Translations under genes and position numbers: made by a program
From: an uncultured Anaeromyxobacteraceae bacterium
GTDB lineage: Bacteria > Myxococcota_A > UBA9042 > DTJE01
DNA: 64,000 bases
Assembly: GCA_964522105.1 (NCBI GenBank)
Contig: CAZFVA010000001.1
Coordinates: 80,343-144,342 of the forward strand
Direction: 5' to 3'
Shown: positions 1 through 49,394 of the stretch, piece by piece
Position numbering within the stretch: position 1 is the first letter of the stretch
Layout of the letters: every line of letters starts with the position of its first letter
The notes under the pieces: model-generated
Database searches by the model: none
Seen by the model: the letters and a program-made list of their open reading frames with translations, nothing else
What the model was told of the DNA's origin: nothing

Positions 1-628
1 AGAAAAAGGCCATGAAATCGTGGTCATTGACGACCCCGACAAGATTCCTGATGACACCGATATCGGTCTGGATTTCAGTTTCCCGGGCGGCGGGCAAAAA
101 TTTGCGGCCGCCATGATTAAACGCGGTGCAGCACTTCTGACCGGTACTACAGGACTGGGCTCGACTGATGTCGTGGCGCTTTCAGAAGCGGCTTCCAGTA
201 TCCCGGTTCTTGTTACAACCAATACCAGCCTTGGCGTTTTCTGCCTTACCGAAATCTCGATGATGGCCAGGACCATCCTGGGTGATGAATATGACGTCGA
301 AATTCTGGAGATGCACCACAGGCACAAGGTGGATGCCCCTTCCGGAACAGCCATTTCGCTGGCCAACGCCCTTGGAACAACGGGACTTGATGTGAACCTG
401 AACCGTCAGGCGGCCAGAAAAGACAACGAAATCGGGGTCGCGTCCCTGCGCGGGGGCGAAGTAACCGGGACACATACGGTCTATTTTCTGGGAAAGAACG
501 ACCAGATCGAAATTACCCACAGGGCAACATCCAGACAGGTTCTGGCAGAGGGGGCAATCAGACTGGGCGTGGCTCTTGTGACGAAAGGCCCCGGGCTTTA
601 TGACGTTTCCGATCTTCTTCGTGGCTGA
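1..628 (+). CDS. dapB: 4-hydroxy-tetrahydrodipicolinate reductase (DapB), 5'-truncated by window edge
   Basis: Frame is open from position 2 to the window start (..EKGHEIVVIDD..). The C-terminal domain carries the DapB signature EILEMHHRHKVDAPSGTA. The track ORF 20..628 begins at an internal GTG. Confidence 0.9.
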   Translation, partial: EKGHEIVVIDDPDKIPDDTDIGLDFSFPGGGQKFAAAMIKRGAALLTGTTGLGSTDVVALSEAASSIPVLVTTNTSLGVFCLTEISMMARTILGDEYDVEILEMHHRHKVDAPSGTAISLANALGTTGLDVNLNRQAARKDNEIGVASLRGGEVTGTHTVYFLGKNDQIEITHRATSRQVLAEGAIRLGVALVTKGPGLYDVSDLLRG

Positions 629-1700
629 TCGTGTCCTTCCAGCTTCCCATAATCTCGAAGATGTTCATTCTGTTGACCATGTCCTGAAGAATGGCGGCAG
701 AACCATTGAATCCAAGATACGGTTTCGGATAAATCATGTGGGCTTCCCGGGCCGGAAAAGTTATTTCCAGAAAACCGGTGTCATCTGACAGGCACGCCAT
801 CGTGGCATCTGTGTTTCCGACGACCAGCATCACGTTTTCTGATTGGTCAGGGTCAGCGATTGCCGGCAGCCGCGACACATGGCCACCAAATCCGGTGATT
901 ACCTGCAGACACACATCACAACCGACTTCGCCCAGGAACTCGCGCATGGCGTCCACAAAAACGACATCCCCGAAAAGACCGATCCGCCTGTTCAGAAGGC
1001 TGTGCGGCACGACCCACTCGAATCTGGGGACAATCCTGGATATCTCGCGGCCGATAAATTCGGCAGCCGCCGGACCACGCCCGACAGACCGACCGACAAC
1101 ATGCATGAACTGAACACTTCCATCGAAGCCGAGCGGCAGGCCGACAGCGACGACACGGGCGCCGGTTCTGGCCGCAAATATGTCAGCAGCCTTCCGACCG
1201 TAAGGCATCGCCAGCAAAACACCTGACTGCCCCGCTGCGGCAAGATCTGCCGTCGAACACGGCGCCGGCCAGAAACAGGAAACCGACAGACCTGTTCCAT
1301 CCGAAATCATCCGCGTCAGCTCGTCGATGTCGGCCCGCGCATCCCACTCATTCCTGGTGACAGGAACGCCGAAAACCGCAACCGAATCTGGCGACGTCGC
1401 TGACCTGGGAATATCTATGGTTGCCGCAAGAAAACACAAGGCATCTTCAAAGCCACGAACCCAGTCGGCACCTTCAGAAGGCATCGATATTGCAAACGAA
1501 TCCGCATCAACCAGGCGCAGTCTGGCCACGAGGTCATGCGAAACTTTCAGATCATGACTGACCATCACGGCGACGGCGCTTTCGATCGCAGCATGGGTGA
1601 CGCCCCGCAGCGGAATCACAGCATCCGACACAAGATTGGCAACTACTGCCACGCCTTCAAGCCACGGACGGACAAATTCTTCACGCCTGATTTCCAGCAC
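558..1700 (-). CDS. Nitrogenase component-1-like subunit (NifD/NifE/NifK/BchN family) of a nitrogenase-like reductase
   Basis: 380-aa ORF whose start overlaps the upstream NifH-like gene by 20 nt. The C-terminal segment [21 protein letters not shown] resembles the conserved NifE/NifK C-terminal motif (..GPYHGFDGFAIFARDM..). There is no N-terminal Cys cluster, so the assignment is tentative. It overlaps dapB convergently by 70 nt. Confidence 0.5.
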
Positions 1701-2553
1701 CGAATGTCTCCTTGATGAAGTTTTCGAACTCGCGATCCACCATCGGGGTTGGAATTGGATGGCTGGAAGGACTGTCGTTCATCATAAGGTCCGCAAGATC
1801 CTTGAATATTTTCACAACATCAGATTCCGGGGCGATGGAAATTACCGGAACACCGGCAATTTCTGCCTGGCTTATCAACGGATCCCACGGAATCTTTGCG
1901 ATGATCTTGGTGCCAATCCGTTCTGCGAACAGGCGCATGCCTTCAAAATTCGTCTTCGAGCCGGTCGAATTCAGTATCAGACCACCAAGACCGATGCCGT
2001 TTGAAGCAAATCGTTTCATAGCCTTGGCGATATTGTTGGCCGCATAAAGGGCCATGATTCCATCGCTGACAACGATGTAAACCAGATCCGCCCTGCCCTG
2101 ACGCAGCGGGGCTGCAAATCCGCCACAGACAACGTCGCCCAGCACGTCAAAGATGGCGGCGTCGTAATCGCCTTCATCTATCAGTTCCAGTTCATCCAGA
2201 ACCTCGAACATTCTGGCAACGCCGCGACCGCCACAACCGACACCCGGTTCAGGGCCACCACACTCGATACAATCCAGACCGAAACGCCCCGGAAAAACGA
2301 TTTCGTCGGCGCGCTCGATCTTGCCCGACAGACGATCAATCACTGTTGAAATCTGCAAATCGCTGTCAAGTAACGTCCTGGTGGAGTCGGCCTTCGGGTC
2401 GCATCCAACATGAAGAACTTTCTTGCCACTGCTGGCCAGAACAGCACTCAGATTGGACGAAACGGTCGATTTGCCGATTCCGCCCTTGCCGTACAAAGCT
2501 ATCATTTTGGTCTTACGGGCCACGTGGTACTCCTTCGAACAAACTTTCTTCAC
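1681..2553 (-). CDS. NifH/BchL/CfbC-family ATPase (nitrogenase iron-protein-like)
   Basis: P-loop [10 protein letters not shown] and switch [10 protein letters not shown] are present. Both [4Fe-4S] ligand contexts match NifH closely: [16 protein letters not shown] and [14 protein letters not shown]. The alternative start MIALYGKGG at 2505 is also possible. Confidence 0.85.
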
Positions 2554-2652
2554 GCGTTTTCAATCAAAATCACAGAACTGCTGTAAGACCTGAATTTTGG
2601 CCTTATACTGAATCAAGGTATCTTATTTAGAAGATCCCGGGAGTATTTTATT

Positions 2653-3027
2653 ATGAAACCTTCTGCTTTTCAGATCTTTTGCGGTTATTACCTGGGTCTG
2701 GACAAAGATTTCGGCACCAGATTTTTTAACATTCACTCTCTGGCAGGTCATTACGGCATCAGCGCTGATGAACTGCACACCTTGATGGATGAATACCATA
2801 TCCTGCCTGAAGACATGGTCCACATCGATTTCAACATCGCCAAAGCGCACGGGGCAGCGCAGGAACTGGACTTCAGCGGACAGCACAACGAACTGATTTT
2901 ATTTGCAAAAAAGTCTTTCGACGAATTCACGCAGGCTCTTGGCGGTATCGACAAAACAAAGGTCTTCGAGGACCTGGACTACGACAACGTGTGGGGCGAC
3001 GAGCCTGACGGCAACCAGAAACGGTAG
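2653..3027 (+). CDS. Hypothetical protein (124 aa), no recognisable motif
   Basis: ATG-initiated ORF with balanced amino-acid composition, sitting directly after a divergent AT-richer intergenic region. It looks lower in GC than its neighbours. A competing antisense ORF 2623..2886 exists. Confidence 0.4.
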   Translation: MKPSAFQIFCGYYLGLDKDFGTRFFNIHSLAGHYGISADELHTLMDEYHILPEDMVHIDFNIAKAHGAAQELDFSGQHNELILFAKKSFDEFTQALGGIDKTKVFEDLDYDNVWGDEPDGNQKR

Positions 3028-3080: not shown

Positions 3081-3160
3081 GCGAGAGTGGTGGAACTGGC
3101 AGACACGCTGGATTTAGGTTCCAGTGCTAACGCGTAGGGGTTCGAGTCCCCTCTCTCGCA
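3081..3160 (+). tRNA. tRNA-Leu (anticodon TAG, reads CUA/CUN)
   Basis: Manually folded cloverleaf. Acceptor stem GCGAGAG pairs perfectly with CTCTCGC, followed by discriminator A. Anticodon stem is CTGGA/TCCAG with a 7-nt loop TTTAGGT (U33, anticodon TAG at 3115-3117, G37). T-arm is AGGGG-TTCGAGT-CCCCT. The long (11-nt) variable arm is typical of class II Leu tRNAs. Confidence 0.8.
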
Positions 3161-3248
3161 CTGCAGGTAAACGTGATCCTGATGAAAGTGGCGCGCGCCC
3201 GGTTCATCTGGAAGACGGGATCACTTCAATTTTGCGAGGTTTTTTGCG

Positions 3249-4829
3249 ATGAAAGTTAGATTAACACTGGCTGCCGGACTTGCTGCACTTGCATTTTCGG
3301 GAATCGTGGCGTGTTCAGGTGGAAACGGGACCGACGACCACAGCGGTATTCCTGACTTCATCATTCCAGACCGGGACATCGCCGAAGATAACGGTCAGGA
3401 CACAGGCGCCGATGTAAACCGGCCCGACGTCAACGATACGGTTGTCGGGACAGACGCCGATTCATCAGAACCGGATGCGACTGACAGCGGCGTAGACATC
3501 GGACCGGCCGACGAAGGTCAGCCTGACGAAGGCCAGCCCGACATCGGACACGATGACGGACCGCCGCCCACAAATTTCTGCAATTCGCTTAACGACTGCC
3601 AGCCTTACGAAGTATGCGACCTGTCACTTGGCCGCTGCGAAGAACGCACGTCTTACAAGACAATCGTCGGGACCGAGCAGCTTTTCGAGTTCCGCCCCCC
3701 GGAGGGCAGTGAAGGCGACTTCATCATCCTGGACGGACAGCGTTTGATGACAAGTTCCACGGGGTCAGCGGTCCGGGCCGACATCAATGGAAAACTGGTC
3801 GCAGGAACCAGTGTGCTTCACTCGACGATCGGGGCCCACCGCATCGTCGGCGTCGTTGGAAGTGACAGCGGAAAAGTCGGCGTAGTCTTCCAGAACGCCA
3901 CACCTATCTATCAGAAGTATCCGGATTCATTTGTAAATGGGGTATCAGGCGTCATCGATTGTGACAACTCGACACCCGCAAAAACGGGAACAGCGGGCGC
4001 ACTTGGTGATGTCGGACCTTATGCGGCGGGATATGTTGATTTCGTCGTTGACGACATGAGGGTCTACTATCCGGCAGAATGCGGCTCGATCAGAAGACCT
4101 GGAACCCCCGGGCAATACCCGCTTGTTGTAATCGTCGCGGAAAATCAGAACCCATCGTTCCCATTCATCAATTTTGACTACATGGGTCAGATGCTGGCCA
4201 CATGGGGATTCGTGACCGTATCGATTAAAGCCGAAATGGATGCCGAAACCTCAGCTTCCGCTGCAAAAGTACTTGTGGAGAAAATACCGGCCTGGATCAA
4301 CGCTGATCTTTCCGCCATGCACCCGGCCCTGACCGGCATCAGCACGACACCGAAACTGACGTGGGTGGCTTTCGGCACAGGCTCGACCACAATCAATGAA
4401 ATCGGCGCTAACGATGAAGGTAATGCGCTTAAGGACAAAGCGATCGCAGCCGTGGCCATTGCCCCGAGTCCGGCCTTGACCGATGATTGCAACCCTTCGT
4501 CTTTCCTGGCTTTATATGGCGCCCAGGACAAGATTGCCAACATCAATCTGGCTAATACGTCGTATGGCAACTTCAGTTCCCCGAAATGGCTGGTCAACAT
4601 CAAAGGCGGCAATCACAGCCTGTTCACGGACCATCAGATGTACTACGCCGGTGGCCTTGGATCTGTTGCTGACGGCGATCCGGTCGACATCATGCGCAAA
4701 GACCAGATGTACATGACCATCAGCATGCTGCTACCTTTCCTTCAGAGGGCTTTTGGGCTGAGCGAACCGTTCAGCGGCCAGCTTCAGACTGGAGTCGATA
4801 ACACATTGATCAAGGTTACCAAGGGCTGA
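3249..4829 (+). CDS. Secreted lipoprotein with acidic low-complexity tether; globular domain of unknown (possibly hydrolase) function
   Basis: Signal peptide plus lipobox MKVRLTLAAGLAALAFSGIVAC. About 90 aa of D/E/T/G-rich disordered sequence follows, including a GQPDEGQPD mini-repeat. Then a Cys-rich knot CNSLNDCQPYEVCDLSLGRCEER precedes a large globular C-terminal domain containing GGNHSLF. Confidence 0.7.
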   Translation: MKVRLTLAAGLAALAFSGIVACSGGNGTDDHSGIPDFIIPDRDIAEDNGQDTGADVNRPDVNDTVVGTDADSSEPDATDSGVDIGPADEGQPDEGQPDIGHDDGPPPTNFCNSLNDCQPYEVCDLSLGRCEERTSYKTIVGTEQLFEFRPPEGSEGDFIILDGQRLMTSSTGSAVRADINGKLVAGTSVLHSTIGAHRIVGVVGSDSGKVGVVFQNATPIYQKYPDSFVNGVSGVIDCDNSTPAKTGTAGALGDVGPYAAGYVDFVVDDMRVYYPAECGSIRRPGTPGQYPLVVIVAENQNPSFPFINFDYMGQMLATWGFVTVSIKAEMDAETSASAAKVLVEKIPAWINADLSAMHPALTGISTTPKLTWVAFGTGSTTINEIGANDEGNALKDKAIAAVAIAPSPALTDDCNPSSFLALYGAQDKIANINLANTSYGNFSSPKWLVNIKGGNHSLFTDHQMYYAGGLGSVADGDPVDIMRKDQMYMTISMLLPFLQRAFGLSEPFSGQLQTGVDNTLIKVTKG

Positions 4830-5055: not shown

Positions 5056-5268
5056 AGCATGACCAGGGAAAAACGCTCGATGGACGACGGACCAAGAATT
5101 ATCCCCACCGACAAAGTCCTTTGCGGGGGAAAGTTTTTTCGTCTGGTCGCCGCATGCTGCCGTAACTGCACCGAACCTCAGTTCTGTCGGGAATTCTGGG
5201 ATTTTTTCCAAAAAAACGGTACTACTCCGCAGGAATACCTGCGAAAATTTGGCCTCGAGGAGGAAGGT

Positions 5269-5694
5269 ATGAAAAGAATCGTTTTCGACTGTGACCGCTG
5301 TGGCAAAAAGGACATCGGCGACCCTTTGACCATCTATTACATGGATGGTGAAAATGAAGGGATGCGCATGACGACTCCGGACTTTGCCAGCGTAGTCGAA
5401 AAAGCGGGCAAGATCCCGGTTTCCAAGGATTACCTTGGTGACATGCTTGAACTGCTGAACCGCCATGAAGGCTGGGAACACTACTGTTCTTCGTGCTTCA
5501 GAAAGGTTGTGCAGTCGGCGGTGGGCATTCTGGGACCGAATGCGAAATCTCGCAGAAAGGCCGGAGCTGACGCCACAATGTCTGCTGCAGGAAAGGCTCT
5601 TGCGGCCAAAAGCCAGCCTAAGCCTTTGACGCTCGAGCAGGAGATCCCCGCACCTTCGCCGGTCGGTCGGAAAAAGACACCGACTGCGACGTAA
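5269..5694 (+). CDS. Small zinc-ribbon-like protein with basic Ala/Lys-rich C-terminal tail
   Basis: Strong Shine-Dalgarno GAGGAGGAAGGT precedes the ATG at 5269. The protein has a CxxC...CxxC pattern (FDCDRCGKKD ... HYCSSCF) and a lysine/alanine-rich tail. The track ORF extends in-frame to 5059, and that longer form also has Cys pairs. The antisense ORF 4966..5832 is Arg-rich junk. Confidence 0.45.
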   Translation: MKRIVFDCDRCGKKDIGDPLTIYYMDGENEGMRMTTPDFASVVEKAGKIPVSKDYLGDMLELLNRHEGWEHYCSSCFRKVVQSAVGILGPNAKSRRKAGADATMSAAGKALAAKSQPKPLTLEQEIPAPSPVGRKKTPTAT

Positions 5695-5805: not shown

Positions 5806-7875
5806 ATGACTTGCAGAATTTCCACCAGACAATGCCTTTTCAGCGTTATGGCTGCAGGCCTGCTGCTTATGTCGACCGGCCTTACAACTGCCCGGGCCGA
5901 AGCAATTTTTCCGACTTCAAGCTACGGACAGATGCACGAAAAGCTACAGCGCCACGACCGGGCGTTTTATAGATTCCTTGCACTGCCGTTCGGATGGTCA
6001 CTTGAAGCCAACGTGATCTCGGATGGCGACAAGGCCCTGATTGTTCAATTTCTAGACCAGACAGAAAGCGAAGACGTCAAGGCAGTCACCGGGAAACACC
6101 CTTATGAAATGTTTACAAACTACGAAGAGCACGGTGACCTCGGCATGTTCGGCGGCGTTGCCATTGCTGGAACTGCCTTCAAATACATGACGCTCAAGCG
6201 CGACGGCGGCACGGCAGAACAGCTTGCCGAAGCCAGACACGACGTCGTGCGCGCAATCGAAAATCAACATATTTTCTGGGCCATCACGGGCGAACCTGGC
6301 GTTTTTGCACGCGGCATCCGCAGACTGGTCGATGAAGACCCGGAAGCCCCGCCGATACCTGACACGCCACGCGAACTGATTCCGCTGTTTGACGAGGCTG
6401 GAAAGCCCTACCCGTACGCAAAGGACAACGGCACCTGGCGCGATGACAATTCAAAGGGCGTGCTTCCCGCTGACACATGGATCTGGGTTGATTCCGCATC
6501 CAAGGACCAGCTTGTAGGACAGATTTTCGCGATGGTTCTTCTTTATGATGCGGCAGCGGGCGACCCAGATATCGACCAGTCGCTGATTGCTCAGATGCAG
6601 GCTGACGCCCGTGCCACAGCCGCGATGCTGATGACGATGCGCGACATTTCAACACTGGAAGGTCCCGCAGGTATTGGCGAATATGACCTGATCATCATGG
6701 ACGCGGACGGCCGCCCGACCTACCACCATGACATTAACCCGTACTCGCTTGAAAAGGTTTATCTGCCGACCGACGTCGGCTCTTACAACATGTTCAATCT
6801 GGCCGTGACGATGGGCGTAATGAAAGGTCTTTACCATGTGACAGGCGACGCGGACATTGAAACGTACACGTTTGGCGAACTGATGGGCAACCGCGGATAC
6901 CTCGACATGATGGACGCTCCGGTTGATGATCCGAACGTCATGGATTACATCTACGCCGACCTCAAGACCAACTATTCAAACGTAAACATGATTGCGACTG
7001 CGATCTGGCTGGCCCTTTACACTGAAAACGACCCGCTCGTTGAAGCCCCGCTTCAGAATTTCCTGGAAGATCGGTTCTGGAATCGCGAAGGAACGACCCG
7101 GACGGCCAGCATGTCCAAGATTCCGTTCTTTAACCTGGTGTGGATGGGCATTACTGACCGTGGTTTTACAAGAGACCTGGTTGATGAAACGGCCGCGCTG
7201 CTTTCAGCCTTCCCGCTTGGACCATATTTCAACAGCCGACGGATCATCAATTGCGACGAGACGGAACTGGCCGCCGGGCAGTGTCTGGCCGTGGACGACG
7301 AAACGATCATCACACTTGAAAACGGTCTGAACAGGGGAAACTGGCCGGTTTCAACGGTGGCTCTTGACCCGACAATCAGGCCCCCATCCAATTTTGACGC
7401 AAGGTCCGACCCGTTCGAAGTGAACGGCGGCGGCGGCCCGACCATGAATCCAGGCGGCGACCACATCGCGGCGTACTGGATGGGTCGTTACCTGTCAATA
7501 AATGCGGCCGGCACCTCATCAAGGTCACCGAACGCACGCACACACATGCAGGTGCCAGGCTTGACTGTAGTTGAAAACCCGCCGGAAACTGCCGAAATTA
7601 TTGATGTCGAGATTATTGAAGATGCGATTGCCACTGATCACGGGTCGATCACCGACATTCGGGCCGATTTGAACGCCACAGACCTCGCCGCCAGTGATAT
7701 TTCAACAACTGATGCGACGACAGGCACCGACGACGGCACTGAACAGAAACCTGGTTCCGGCTGCTCGGCAGCGGGGCCGTCTTCAGGCTCTGGCGCACTG
7801 GTGCTTATCATCCTTGGAATGGGCTTGATTTCATTCGTCGCTGTCCGAAAACGCCGCACTTTATCTGCTAACTGA
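5806..7875 (+). CDS. Secreted 689-aa protein of unknown function with MYXO-CTERM-like C-terminal sorting signal
   Basis: N-terminal signal peptide (..LLLMSTGLTTARAEA). The C-terminus GSGCSAAGPSSGSGALVLIILGMGLISFVAVRKRR is a Cys-containing motif followed by a hydrophobic helix and basic residues, the pattern of MYXO-CTERM-type signals. A T/D-rich linker precedes it. Confidence 0.75.
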   Translation: MTCRISTRQCLFSVMAAGLLLMSTGLTTARAEAIFPTSSYGQMHEKLQRHDRAFYRFLALPFGWSLEANVISDGDKALIVQFLDQTESEDVKAVTGKHPYEMFTNYEEHGDLGMFGGVAIAGTAFKYMTLKRDGGTAEQLAEARHDVVRAIENQHIFWAITGEPGVFARGIRRLVDEDPEAPPIPDTPRELIPLFDEAGKPYPYAKDNGTWRDDNSKGVLPADTWIWVDSASKDQLVGQIFAMVLLYDAAAGDPDIDQSLIAQMQADARATAAMLMTMRDISTLEGPAGIGEYDLIIMDADGRPTYHHDINPYSLEKVYLPTDVGSYNMFNLAVTMGVMKGLYHVTGDADIETYTFGELMGNRGYLDMMDAPVDDPNVMDYIYADLKTNYSNVNMIATAIWLALYTENDPLVEAPLQNFLEDRFWNREGTTRTASMSKIPFFNLVWMGITDRGFTRDLVDETAALLSAFPLGPYFNSRRIINCDETELAAGQCLAVDDETIITLENGLNRGNWPVSTVALDPTIRPPSNFDARSDPFEVNGGGGPTMNPGGDHIAAYWMGRYLSINAAGTSSRSPNARTHMQVPGLTVVENPPETAEIIDVEIIEDAIATDHGSITDIRADLNATDLAASDISTTDATTGTDDGTEQKPGSGCSAAGPSSGSGALVLIILGMGLISFVAVRKRRTLSAN

Positions 7876-47190: not shown

Positions 47191-48150
47191 ATGGCGGTGG
47201 TTACCATGGCATGGGATTATTCAGACAAGGTCTTGAAGTTGTTTCGCGACGCGATGGCTTCAAAGGCCGGCACACATATGGGTCGCATTCAGGACCCGGA
47301 CGGCACGGGGACTCACGGTTCGCTGTCATGCGGCGACGCACTTGAATTTTCGTTCAAGGTCGAAAAAGACGAAACCGACCCCAGAAATGACAAGATCGTT
47401 GAAGCCAGATACCAGACGTTCGGCTGTACTTCAGCCATCGCAGCTTCCGAGGCCCTTTGCGTACTGATTGAAGAAAAGAATCTGACCCCGATTCAGGCGC
47501 TTAAGATCACGAACGCCGACATCGTGGAATATCTTGACGGACTGCCGGCGCAGAAGCTGCACTGTTCTGTCATGGGTGCGGAAGCACTTGCCACCGCAGT
47601 TGCTGACTGGGCGCGGAAGCGTGGCGTCCCGGCGTCCGAGCTTGGCTTTGATCTCGGTCAGTTGAAAGAAGACGAAGGCCGTATAGTCTGCCGCTGCTTC
47701 AACCTGACCGAGCCTTTCATCCGCAGGAAAGTCAAGGAACTGAACCTGAAGACAATTACGGAGATTACGAACGCGATCAAGGCTGGCGGCGCGTGTACGG
47801 CGTGCCACCATGAACCGGGCGGACTTCAGGACATTCTGGATGATATCTGGGGCAAAAAGGAAAACGCGCCTGTCGAAAAGCCTTTACCCACAGAAACGCC
47901 TGTTTTTATGAGCAGAACGCCGTTCCAGCTTGCTCGCGAAATTGACCGGGTCGTTGAAAACGATGTGCGGCCCAGGCTGAAGTCACAGGGCGGCGACATA
48001 GAAATAGTCGAAATCCGTGACAAAAAGATATTCTGCCGGTTGCTTGGCGGGTGTCAGGGCTGCAGCGGGGCGCCGCAGACGCTTCGACTGGTCGTAGAAG
48101 ATGCACTTCGGGCCAAGGTTGATGCCGAACTTGAAGTCGTCTCGATCTGA
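47191..48150 (+). CDS. nifU: Three-domain NifU-type Fe-S cluster scaffold protein
   Basis: N-terminal IscU-like domain with three Cys (SLSCGDALEF, FGCTSAIAASEA, KLHCSVMGAEAL). Central BFD-like [2Fe-2S] domain (CRCFN ... ACTACHH). C-terminal NifU domain with CQGCSGA. Confidence 0.85.
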   Translation: MAVVTMAWDYSDKVLKLFRDAMASKAGTHMGRIQDPDGTGTHGSLSCGDALEFSFKVEKDETDPRNDKIVEARYQTFGCTSAIAASEALCVLIEEKNLTPIQALKITNADIVEYLDGLPAQKLHCSVMGAEALATAVADWARKRGVPASELGFDLGQLKEDEGRIVCRCFNLTEPFIRRKVKELNLKTITEITNAIKAGGACTACHHEPGGLQDILDDIWGKKENAPVEKPLPTETPVFMSRTPFQLAREIDRVVENDVRPRLKSQGGDIEIVEIRDKKIFCRLLGGCQGCSGAPQTLRLVVEDALRAKVDAELEVVSI

Positions 48151-48167
48151 CGGCGGGGGTTAACGCG

Positions 48168-49394
48168 ATGAGCGAAAAAGTCATATATCTGGACAACAAC
48201 GCGACTACCCCGATTGCGCCCGAGGTTCTGGAGGCGATGCTTCCGTTCCTGCGCGATCAATATTTCAACCCGAGCTCGACGTACCCGCAGGCAAAGATTC
48301 CGGCCGAGGCGATTGAATCTGCGCGTGAAAGCGTGGCAAGACTTGTCGGCGCGGGAAGCAAGTCGGAAATCATCTTTAACGGCGGCGCAACCGAAGGTAA
48401 CAACTCGGCTTTGTGGGGTGCGTTGCGGGCCAATCCTGACCGCAGACATATCGTTACGACAGCCGTCGAACATCCGGCCGTGCTTGAAGTCGTGCGCGAA
48501 ATGGAACGCCAGGGTTACCGCGTCACGTTCCTGCCAGTTAACAGTGATGGCAAGCTTGATGCCGCCGACCTTGTCAGGTCAATTCAGGACGACACAGCGG
48601 TCGTTTCAATCATGCACGCCAACAATGAAACCGGCGTAATTTTCCCGATTGCTGAACTTGCCGCGCTTGCGAAGAAAGTAAACAGTCAGATCGTATTTCA
48701 CACAGACGCGACCCAGACGGTCGGCAAGATGCGCATCGATGTACAGCACGACCTGAAGGACATTGACATACTGACGATGTCCGGCCACAAGGTCTATGCG
48801 GCCAAAGGCGTCGGGGCCATGTTTGTAAGGCGCGGCGCACGGTGGCGCCCATGGCAGCTTGGCGGACATCAGGAACGCGGGCGCAGGGCTGGAACTGAAA
48901 ACGTGGCGTCGATCGTCGGACTTGGCGCGGCCGCCAGGATGCTGATGCACCATGACGACAGTGCGAAGCTTCAGAAGATGCGCGACAAGCTGGAAACGGC
49001 CATCCGTGGACAGATTCCGAACCTGTTTATCAACGGTGCAAAGGCCCCCAGGCTTCCAAATACAACGAATTTCGCCTTTGAATATGTGGAAGGCGAATCG
49101 ATGCTGCTGGCCCTTAACGACTATGGAATCTGCGTTTCGTCCGGTTCGGCCTGCACCAGCGGCTCGCTTGACCCGTCGCACGTCCTGAAGGCGATGAACG
49201 TGCCGTTTTCGGCGGCCCACGGAAGTCTGCGTATCAGCACTTCAAGATTTACTGCCGAATCTGACATGGACGCGCTGATTGAGGCGCTGCCAATTGTGAT
49301 TGGACAGCTCCGCACGATTTCACCTTACTGGGATTCGGTAACGAACGCACCACGCACAGACGTCGACATGTTCGTTCAGGAAAAGTACCGATAG
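48168..49394 (+). CDS. nifS: NifS/IscS-type cysteine desulfurase (class V aminotransferase)
   Basis: N-terminal IYLDNNATTPIAPEVLEAM, the PLP-lysine region SGHKVYAAKGVGAMFVRRG, and the active-site loop SSGSACTSGS. It lies 18 nt downstream of nifU. Confidence 0.85.
   Translation: MSEKVIYLDNNATTPIAPEVLEAMLPFLRDQYFNPSSTYPQAKIPAEAIESARESVARLVGAGSKSEIIFNGGATEGNNSALWGALRANPDRRHIVTTAVEHPAVLEVVREMERQGYRVTFLPVNSDGKLDAADLVRSIQDDTAVVSIMHANNETGVIFPIAELAALAKKVNSQIVFHTDATQTVGKMRIDVQHDLKDIDILTMSGHKVYAAKGVGAMFVRRGARWRPWQLGGHQERGRRAGTENVASIVGLGAAARMLMHHDDSAKLQKMRDKLETAIRGQIPNLFINGAKAPRLPNTTNFAFEYVEGESMLLALNDYGICVSSGSACTSGSLDPSHVLKAMNVPFSAAHGSLRISTSRFTAESDMDALIEALPIVIGQLRTISPYWDSVTNAPRTDVDMFVQEKYR

Follow-up and report, generated by a model that had tools for sequence, protein, structure and literature searches.

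A candidate two-gene, group VI-type nitrogenase-like module with a single component 1 homologue that lacks the canonical cluster ligands, in a myxobacterial chromosome

Results

A pair of overlapping nitrogenase-like genes lies beside dapB

We examined a stretch of 64,000 nucleotides (the window) from the genome of an uncultured Anaeromyxobacteraceae bacterium (assembly GCA_964522105.1, contig CAZFVA010000001.1, positions 80,343 to 144,342). An earlier note, made from the sequence alone, had pointed there to a gene for a homologue of the nitrogenase iron protein NifH next to a gene for a single nitrogenase component 1-like protein, here called the partner. The comparisons presented below indicate that this locus is a two-gene nitrogenase-like (NFL) module of the type known as group VI, with a NifH-like reductase that is predicted to be intact and with a single component 1 protein in which we could align none of the canonical cluster ligands. 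The features of the locus are listed in Table 1.

The mechanically derived open reading frame (ORF) of the NifH-like gene (1681..2553, minus strand) encodes 290 aa, and the public gene call places the start at ATG 2505. The GTG at 2523 aligns with the ATG start of the orthologues and has a Shine-Dalgarno sequence, AAGGAG, 6 nt upstream. Therefore, the coding sequence most likely starts at this GTG rather than at 2553 and specifies a protein of 280 aa; the 90% cluster of the protein includes a member of the same length. The 20-nt overlap with the 380-aa partner ORF, which the earlier note had reported, was found again, indicating that the two genes probably form a translationally coupled operon. 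The overlap amounts to 14 nt in the orthologues and is present also in L010, L012, and L034 (related loci are designated by L numbers, related proteins by P numbers).

The pair is flanked by dapB and a tRNA gene, as had been stated, but a conserved gene for a 124-aa protein sits between it and the tRNA gene. Its description as an orphan did not hold, as syntenic orthologues were present in more than 10 contigs of metagenome-assembled genomes of Myxococcota. All dapB-linked loci (L001-L009, L010, L033, and L035) have 62-108 nt in which the converging partner gene and dapB overlap, while the genes beyond dapB vary (metK, PEGA/PIN, and others); a tRNA gene recurs in related loci. Since the dapB overlap persists despite differing outer neighbours and the tRNA gene recurs, the association with dapB and the tRNA gene is partly synteny inherited within one Myxococcota lineage and is not readable as functional linkage. 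The convergent overlap itself may represent frozen synteny or antisense coupling. The setting of the pair (tRNA-Leu, 124-aa gene, dapB, and metK) is one of housekeeping synteny.

Table 1. Features of the locus and of the remainder of the window (positions in the window; E values after the Pfam family names).
Feature	Position	Strand	Remark
dapB, cut by the window edge	20..628	+	flanks the pair
Short beta-type component 1 homologue (partner), Oxidored_nitro fold	558..1700	-	380 aa; Pfam Oxidored_nitro 4.1e-23
Convergent 3'-3' overlap of partner gene and dapB	558..628		71 nt
NifH-like (NflH-type) gene, predicted ATP-dependent [4Fe-4S] reductase	1681..2523	-	280 aa; Pfam Fer4_NifH 8.6e-85
Overlap of NifH-like and partner genes	1681..1700	-	20 nt; NifH-like stop region over partner GTG start
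Divergent intergenic region, NifH-like gene to 124-aa gene	2524..2652		presumed site of both promoters
124-aa orphan gene, divergent to NifH-like gene	2653..3027	+	candidate associated component
tRNA-Leu	3081..3161	+	flanks the pair on the other side
Gene for 526-aa protein	3249..4829	+	probable signal/lipoprotein N-terminus; weak alpha/beta-hydrolase match at most
Gene for Cys-rich 211-aa protein	5059..5694	+	no Pfam match
Gene for 689-aa protein	5806..7875	+	no Pfam match
Two tandem paralogous genes, ~480 aa	25475..28322	+	calcineurin-like phosphoesterases
Three-domain NifU (NifU_N, BFD-like, NifU C-terminal domain), then NifS-type cysteine desulfurase	47191..49394	+

The NifH-like protein has retained its catalytic residues

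The hallmarks of an iron protein that had been read in the 1681..2553 ORF, namely the P-loop, switch I, and both cysteine contexts of the [4Fe-4S] cluster, were all present, and the proposed searches with Pfam Fer4_NifH and Oxidored_nitro matched both ORFs. The P-loop lysines, the switch I and switch II aspartates, Cys97, Arg100, and Cys132 were invariant in 119 of 119 NifH-like relatives. Homologues fell into three tiers, at 77-82% identity (the window's own clade), at 60-66%, and at about 50%, the last comprising many sequences, several of them labelled Myxococcales or Myxococcota. The two cysteines and Arg100 were strictly kept in all 32 sequences of the first two tiers (10 + 22), among which are all the NifH-like proteins that were seen next to a short partner. 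Judged by these residues, the protein is a complete NifH-family ATPase/[4Fe-4S] protein with its catalytic apparatus intact.

The protein scored below each of the NCBIfam equivalog cut-offs with which it was compared: nifH (TIGR01287, 288.1 bits vs. a cut-off of 394.35), CfbC (NF033200, 280.4 vs. 402), BchL (200.9 vs. 345), and BchX (169.7 vs. 331). It shared 41-46% identity with annotated NifH and 37.5% with BchL, and was nearly equidistant from the solved structures of NifH (231-232 bits) and MarH (PDB 9FMG chain D, 222-230 bits). The phylogeny that the earlier note had proposed was obtained in part, as a neighbour-joining (NJ) tree of NFL-type, NifH, and MarH sequences rooted on BchL, with 50 bootstraps. 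The window's clade was recovered in 50/50 bootstraps, this clade plus the 60-66% tier in 31/50, and the NFL-type sequences, including two Elusimicrobia NflH, were set apart from NifH and MarH with moderate support (33/50). Raw distances were 0.87 to NifH and 0.88-0.90 to the NflH of Myxococcota three-gene loci. The tree is compatible, with moderate support, with a placement of the protein in group VI.

P0012, P0024, and many homologues of the third tier carry the label 'nitrogenase iron protein NifH' in JGI/NCBI, though these apparently mislabelled NFL reductases score about 100 bits under the NifH equivalog cut-off. Because of this public label, diazotroph counts that are based on nifH can be inflated by such genes.

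The partner is a shortened beta-type subunit devoid of canonical cluster ligands

The partner had been described as NifD/E/K-like. Its match to Oxidored_nitro, limited to profile positions 111-398 of 399, agrees with this, but the protein is specifically beta-type (NifK/NifN/BchB-like) and not NifD/E-like. Its best NCBIfam matches were all beta-type subunits (BchB, BchZ, and NifK; 20-28 bits). An AlphaFold2 model derived from an 11-sequence alignment (pLDDT 80.5, pTM 0.81) had AnfK, NifN, VnfK, BchB, and NifK as its top PDB matches in Foldseek (E 1e-14 to 1e-12, TM ~0.68; 1e-14 for NifN 9ian_C and 1.4e-12 for BchB 3aer_B), with alpha-type chains ranking below the beta-type ones; identity in the structural alignments was 12-18%.

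A word-indexed search of 5.8 billion proteins yielded nine close relatives of the partner (48-56% identity), followed by an Elusimicrobiales protein of 425 aa (P0010, 2.2e-24). When 1.84 billion cluster representatives were searched exhaustively with a profile, 813 relatives were returned, of which 292 had E <= 1e-30; most were 420-460 aa long. The window's clade was there as one representative (608 bits), the next match being at 324 bits. The nearest relatives outside the clade were the 425-437-aa beta-like subunits of three-gene loci from Elusimicrobia, Polyangiales, and Byssovorax, matched at 2e-24 to 5e-36 (up to 4.6e-36 for the types of L028, from Elusimicrobia, and of the 429-aa subunit of L012), as compared with ~1e-4 to 1e-7 for NifK/BchB. 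These relatives, which belong to three-gene systems of the group VI type, speak against the analogy with group IV that the earlier note had drawn.

To locate the cluster ligands, the family was aligned, by way of the full-length beta-like intermediates, with NifD/NifK (pNGR234a and C. butyricum) and BchN/BchB (Sulfitobacter plasmid). Three positions were followed: A ('RGC' in NifD, 'KAC' in NifK), B ('HG..GC' in NifD and NifK; Cys in BchN and Asp in BchB), and C ('TTCMAEVIGDD'/'SECPIGLIGDD'). Asp36 of BchB, which we take to be the ligand of this beta-type subunit, aligned as 'QGD'. The alpha-like subunits of three-gene loci have kept Cys at B and C, and the full-length beta-like subunits a single one, at B ('DGPDC'). 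The window partner has Ala37 at B and no Cys at A, and the beta-alpha-beta segment that carries C is deleted; the canonical N-terminal cysteines are thus missing, as had been noted. The deletion removes about 60 residues of domain I, the spacing from H49-D50 to D79-W80 being 31 residues, vs. about 91 in full-length subunits.

The 150 best of the 813 relatives were compared for this spacing and for the residue at B. Nearly all of those with about 90 residues between the two motifs have Cys at B, and those with 25-41 residues have A, D, E, P, or Q there, the exception being P0272, a probable fragment of 301 aa. Deletion of the domain I segment and loss of the cysteine at B are therefore tightly coupled in this alignment of the 150 best relatives. 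In an NJ tree computed on the columns shared by both forms, 19 short sequences, including the window's clade, formed one core clade (bootstrap 51/100). The window's own clade was found in 60/60 replicates. Strict monophyly of all short forms was recovered in 0/60 replicates and was rejected; the sequences outside the core clade (P0156, P0221, P0240, P0256, P0277, and P0272) may be independent deletions or fragments.

Apart from the lost ligand cysteines, almost all family-wide invariants are kept in the partner: H49, D50, W80, G83, R116, E118, D120, W144, P166, P189, G191, E312, P316, H321, and G330. The short clade has conserved residues of its own (D124, R222, C261, and R344), and so has the window's clade, namely C89 and C264 (9/9) and C303 (7/9), C264 being part of a GC261-D-V-C264 motif that is present in 9/9. 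As far as alignment can tell, the partner is a trimmed derivative of a group VI beta-type subunit, without the canonical cluster ligands.

We considered the possibility that the partner is a homodimeric reductase resembling CfbD of the CfbCD system, which would hold a bridging Fe-S cluster through the non-canonical C89, C261, and C264 and would reduce a tetrapyrrole ring. Such an enzyme would share with CfbCD the two genes and a partner of about 380 aa; the C89 and C261-x-x-C264 cysteines are those found throughout the window's clade, and group VI has been proposed to act on tetrapyrroles (10.1101/765248; PMC13474568). Yet C89 and C264 occur in only 9/19 members of the short clade and hence cannot be the functional core of the family, and C261 is found also in NifK, as 'ELGC', a cysteine with no known ligand role there. 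Furthermore, the equivalents of the CfbD ligands are Ala37 and the deleted segment, CfbC is missed by more than 100 bits, the CfbD model TIGR03282 was absent from the partner's matches at E <= 0.1, and neither cfb nor tetrapyrrole genes were found in the window. Membership of CfbCD proper, an analogy raised by the earlier note, was rejected, the defining ligands being lost and both profile models unmatched, and we regard a CfbCD-like reductase with non-canonical ligands as very unlikely.

Two-gene, mixed, and three-gene loci coexist among the relatives

Three arrangements were observed in related loci. In the three-gene type, seen in Polyangiales, Byssovorax, other Myxococcales, and Elusimicrobia, the NifH-like gene is followed by genes for an alpha-like subunit (~580-600 aa) and a beta-like subunit (~425-437 aa); one Elusimicrobiales locus encodes a fusion of the NifH-like protein with alpha. 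In the two-gene type, represented by the window's clade, L010, L024, L033, and L035, the NifH-like gene overlaps the gene for a short partner of 339-411 aa. In the mixed type (L012, 8824-11894; L034, 5144-8181), the NifH-like gene and short partner are convergent to an alpha/beta pair, the single NifH-like gene being common to both; it is always the short partner that the NifH-like gene overlaps, even in these two loci. Mixed loci may be an evolutionary intermediate between three-gene and two-gene systems. Both of them also have, after the alpha subunit, a gene for a protein of 473-499 aa that matched no NCBIfam or Pfam model.

These mixed loci raise the question of whether the short partner could be the beta subunit of a group VI heterotetramer whose cluster-binding alpha subunit is encoded elsewhere in the genome, electrons of the NifH-like cluster then reaching the substrate by way of a cluster held by alpha. 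L012 and L034 do combine a short partner and an alpha/beta pair with one NifH-like gene, and the window covers 64 kb of a contig of 221,888 bp. However, wherever alpha is present, a full-length beta subunit is present too (429/437 aa, with Cys at B), which indicates that the short form is an extra paralogue rather than the beta subunit. The short form also lacks the one ligand that beta contributes as well as the interface segment, alpha and beta are adjacent in 7/7 three-gene or mixed loci examined, and no second component 1 locus was found, within the limits of the search patterns, in five species-representative genomes with the two-gene form. A split enzyme of this kind appears decidedly unlikely.

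In L032 (Polyangiales Bin_29, JBDIVX010000007.1, 23303-44127), a related NifH-like gene (46% identity) lies among at least four genes for B12-binding radical S-adenosylmethionine (radical-SAM) proteins, and the contig also carries an alpha/beta pair about 25 kb away; this agrees with the context published for group VI. Radical-SAM/B12 genes were seen in L013 as well, and neither in the window nor in the clade loci L001-L009. In L010 (5261-6881) and L033 (5738-7335), the 124-aa gene and the NifH-like gene are separated by two genes for ABC ATPases, which matched NikD/NikE and CntD/F best, below cut-off. No permease gene was adjacent, and a TonB-dependent receptor or ExbB-ExbD-TonB was encoded just upstream; none of these genes is present at the window locus. 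This context is a weak hint of an imported metal chelate.

Both genes are kept by purifying selection

The ratio of nonsynonymous to synonymous substitution rates (dN/dS) was computed for L001 and L004 (dS ~0.7), the two orthologues closest to each other, because comparisons of the window with its nearest orthologues showed saturation of dS. It amounted to 0.054 for the NifH-like gene, 0.188 for the partner gene, 0.187 for dapB, 0.076 for the 124-aa gene, and 0.026 for metK. The NifH-like and partner genes are therefore kept by purifying selection. These values bear on the idea that the pair is a decaying remnant of a former three-gene system, devoid of any current function, as the loss of a ligand and of a domain segment relative to the full-length family could suggest. 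The partner gene is constrained as strongly as dapB, and the NifH-like gene still more so; moreover, intact frames and the gene overlap are kept across lineages whose partners share 33-56% identity, and about 40 positions of the partner are invariant. The dN/dS values effectively refute the idea of a relic.

A conserved 124-aa protein is encoded next to the pair

Homologues of the 124-aa gene (1e-37 to 1e-48) adjoined the NifH-like gene in all dapB-linked two-gene loci that were examined. They point away from it in the window's clade and in the same direction as it in L010, L033, and L035. Only 10 of 5.8 billion proteins belong to the family, and the 124-aa protein matched no NCBIfam or Pfam model. 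Its invariant residues comprise an N-terminal FQIFCGYYLGLD motif, C10, H28, H33, H57, and H66. The predicted structure is all-alpha, with weak fold similarities almost exclusively to helix-turn-helix (HTH) domains, so that the protein is possibly a small HTH-like regulator, and the divergent gene may regulate the nitrogenase-like operon. No inverted repeat that could serve as operator was found in the intergenic region 2524..2652, where promoter and terminator scans gave results at chance level. The region shares no conserved block with its counterparts, and a stretch of about 55 nt that other clade members have in common there is absent from the window.

This gene is also relevant to a role other than that of a reductase. 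By analogy with NifH acting on NifEN/NifDK in cofactor maturation, the pair could act as an ATP-dependent chaperone, maturase, carrier, or sensor, with the partner as a scaffold that binds a cofactor or ligand, possibly signalling through the HTH-like protein. A partner that is cluster-less by ligand alignment, that has NifN among its top structural matches, and that in L012 and L034 is found together with an alpha/beta enzyme, like NifEN with NifDK, would suit such a function, as would an adjoining conserved protein resembling an HTH domain. Nevertheless, the strict retention of both [4Fe-4S] cysteines and of Arg100 in 32/32 sequences argues that the redox function has been kept, and most of the clade has no nearby alpha/beta enzyme that would need maturation. 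We find this type of role unlikely.

The remainder of the window is ordinary core chromosome

Besides the pair, the window encodes OmpA, a Ser/Thr kinase, ABC-F proteins, glycosyltransferases, DAHP synthase/chorismate mutase, GlnA, pilus ATPases, a P-type ATPase, TerC, and an ftsQAZ-mur cluster, and the Myxococcota-like character that had been attributed to this chromosome was confirmed. Pfam scans of 44 of the 48 window ORFs of at least 100 aa, together with a phmmer sweep of five Oxidored_nitro (component 1) queries against all 291 six-frame window ORFs of at least 80 aa, recovered the partner and no second Oxidored_nitro gene, and no gene for an alpha-type subunit. Neither did the window contain nifB/E/N, bch/chl, cfb (including cfbABE), tetrapyrrole, or radical-SAM genes, in agreement with what the earlier note had said of nif, bch, and cfb accessory genes. 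Rfam searches of the window and of five related loci (gathering threshold) detected tRNAs and no riboswitch or other RNA.

The NifU-NifS pair is situated among housekeeping genes, 45 kb from the nitrogenase-like pair, and is probably a general Fe-S assembly system. Its proposed role as a source of clusters for the nitrogenase-like pair was rejected, as its surroundings are of the housekeeping kind and nothing ties the two specifically.

Several other genes deserve mention. The 526-aa protein encoded downstream of the tRNA gene matched no NCBIfam or Pfam model; a homologue (1e-65) is encoded upstream of the 124-aa gene in L035, where weak Chlorophyllase/PAF-AH annotations are found. The genes for the 211-aa and 689-aa proteins have kept their synteny across the clade (equivalents in L018 and L001-L007). 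The two phosphoesterase genes are followed by an ABC-2 permease/ATPase pair and by a gene for an 805-aa protein with MopE-type Cu-binding repeats.

Discussion

We propose that the pair is a self-contained two-gene module of the group VI type, in which electrons would be transferred directly, with no relay, from the cluster of the NifH-like protein to a ligand bound by the partner; we put the probability of this reading at about 0.45. A NifH-like dimer with its bridging [4Fe-4S] cluster would dock on a dimer of the partner, and upon ATP binding and hydrolysis, low-potential electrons would pass from this cluster straight to the partner-held ligand, no relay cluster lying on their path. The domain I deletion would open the site on the dimer axis that normally holds the P-cluster or the NB-cluster. 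As for the substrate, a metal chelate or a tetrapyrrole-like cofactor would be the leading guess, because of the B12/radical-SAM genes in three-gene systems and of the NikD/E-like ABC ATPases and TonB components in sister loci.

Several points weigh against this proposal. A cluster-free component 1 partner is without precedent, since in all characterised members of the superfamily (nitrogenase, DPOR (dark-operative protochlorophyllide oxidoreductase)/COR (chlorophyllide oxidoreductase), CfbCD, MAR, and ISR), component 1 holds a relay or catalytic cluster that receives the electrons of the iron protein (PMC13474568). The cysteines specific to the window's clade (C89, C261-x-x-C264, and C303) could make up a non-canonical metal site. 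The short partner may have an accessory role, since L012 and L034 encode it next to an alpha/beta pair. The gene context of the window's clade consists of housekeeping genes only and gives no clue to the substrate. Finally, in the host genome the search for further component 1 genes covered the 64-kb window, and the patterns used to scan the five two-gene-form genomes would miss a beta subunit of the L012 type.

A stronger form of the proposal is that this is the first nitrogenase-superfamily system with a wholly metallocluster-free component 1, the [4Fe-4S] cluster of the iron protein being the terminal reductant and the substrate occupying the vacated pocket. We consider this somewhat doubtful. 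If true, it would amount to a minimal reductase made of an iron protein and a substrate cradle, evolved from a three-subunit group VI enzyme via a stage that survives in L012 and L034. Whichever the mechanism, a clade under purifying selection that combines an intact iron protein homologue with a ligand-less partner tests whether the relay cluster is obligatory and bears on the minimal functional unit of the nitrogenase superfamily. Three-gene, mixed, and two-gene architectures are all extant and may be successive stages, open to direct comparison. For group VI, in which no member (NflH/NflD/NflK) has been characterised according to a 2026 review (PMC13474568), the pair moreover offers a compact two-gene system for heterologous expression.

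Group VI systems are already known from Elusimicrobia, with divergent D/K-like proteins lacking some P-cluster cysteines, no NifB, and radical-SAM genes, and have been proposed to make a tetrapyrrole-type cofactor (10.1101/765248; PMC13474568). About one-third of the Elusimicrobia genomes with group VI have NflH plus one large subunit only (PMC13474568), and NifH homologues of the group were reported in 2020 in 14 Myxococcales genomes (Meheust et al. 2020, 10.1101/765248), so that the pair is not as unexpected in Myxococcota as the earlier note had held. What appears to be new is a sub-type with a domain I deletion, replacement of the ligand Cys by Ala, and no alpha, radical-SAM, or tetrapyrrole gene in 64 kb.

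Comparison with known systems

Compared with the nitrogenases (NifHDK, VnfHDGK, and AnfHDGK), the window's NifH-like protein falls under the equivalog cut-off, and there is one component 1 gene, without Cys at A, B, or C, and no nifB/E/N in the window. The C-S bond-cleaving MarHDK and IsrHDK systems (groups IV-C and IV-F), the second of which has been reported in Myxococcota (PMC11423573), likewise use a NifH-like ATPase reductase, MarH being at a similar distance. What sets them apart is a radical-SAM maturase (MarB/IsrB/NifB-like) and D and K subunits that carry P-cluster-type ligands, none of which is found in the window.

DPOR and COR (group V) are set apart by BchL and BchX scores that are far under the cut-offs, and by the lack of a second subunit and of bch genes in the window. 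The beta-type fold of the partner is nevertheless shared with BchB of DPOR and NifN of NifEN. In these enzymes, the beta-type subunit gives at most one ligand to the inter-subunit [4Fe-4S] cluster, as would the ancestral 429-aa type with its one Cys. BchB and NifN always come with an alpha-type subunit (BchN/NifE) supplying three Cys, whereas the window lacks both alpha and the single beta ligand.

CfbCD (group IV-B) resembles the pair in combining a NifH-like reductase with a single component 1 homologue of about 360-380 aa, with no K-type subunit. In the CfbD homodimer, the bridging [4Fe-4S] cluster is held by Cys39 and Cys94, which correspond to NifD Cys88 and Cys154 (PMC13474568). Both positions are lost in the window partner, whose fold and profile matches are of the beta type; neither the CfbC nor the CfbD model is matched at its cut-off, no cfbABE are present in the window, and the host is a bacterium and not a methanogen or anaerobic methanotrophic (ANME) archaeon.

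Closest are the group VI NFL systems, with which we infer, from taxonomy and architecture, that L014 and L028 are to be identified. The window differs from them in its short partner, which has none of the canonical Cys ligands and is missing about 60 aa of domain I, and in the lack of an alpha-type subunit and of nearby radical-SAM or B12 genes. Common to both are a NifH-like protein with Cys97/Cys132, Walker A/B, and switch I/II, all invariant here; a component 1 homologue that has diverged far from NifD/K and lacks the ligands of the iron-molybdenum cofactor, with no NifB/E/N genes; a partner that belongs to the sequence family of the Elusimicrobia subunits; and a distribution over Elusimicrobia and Myxococcales.

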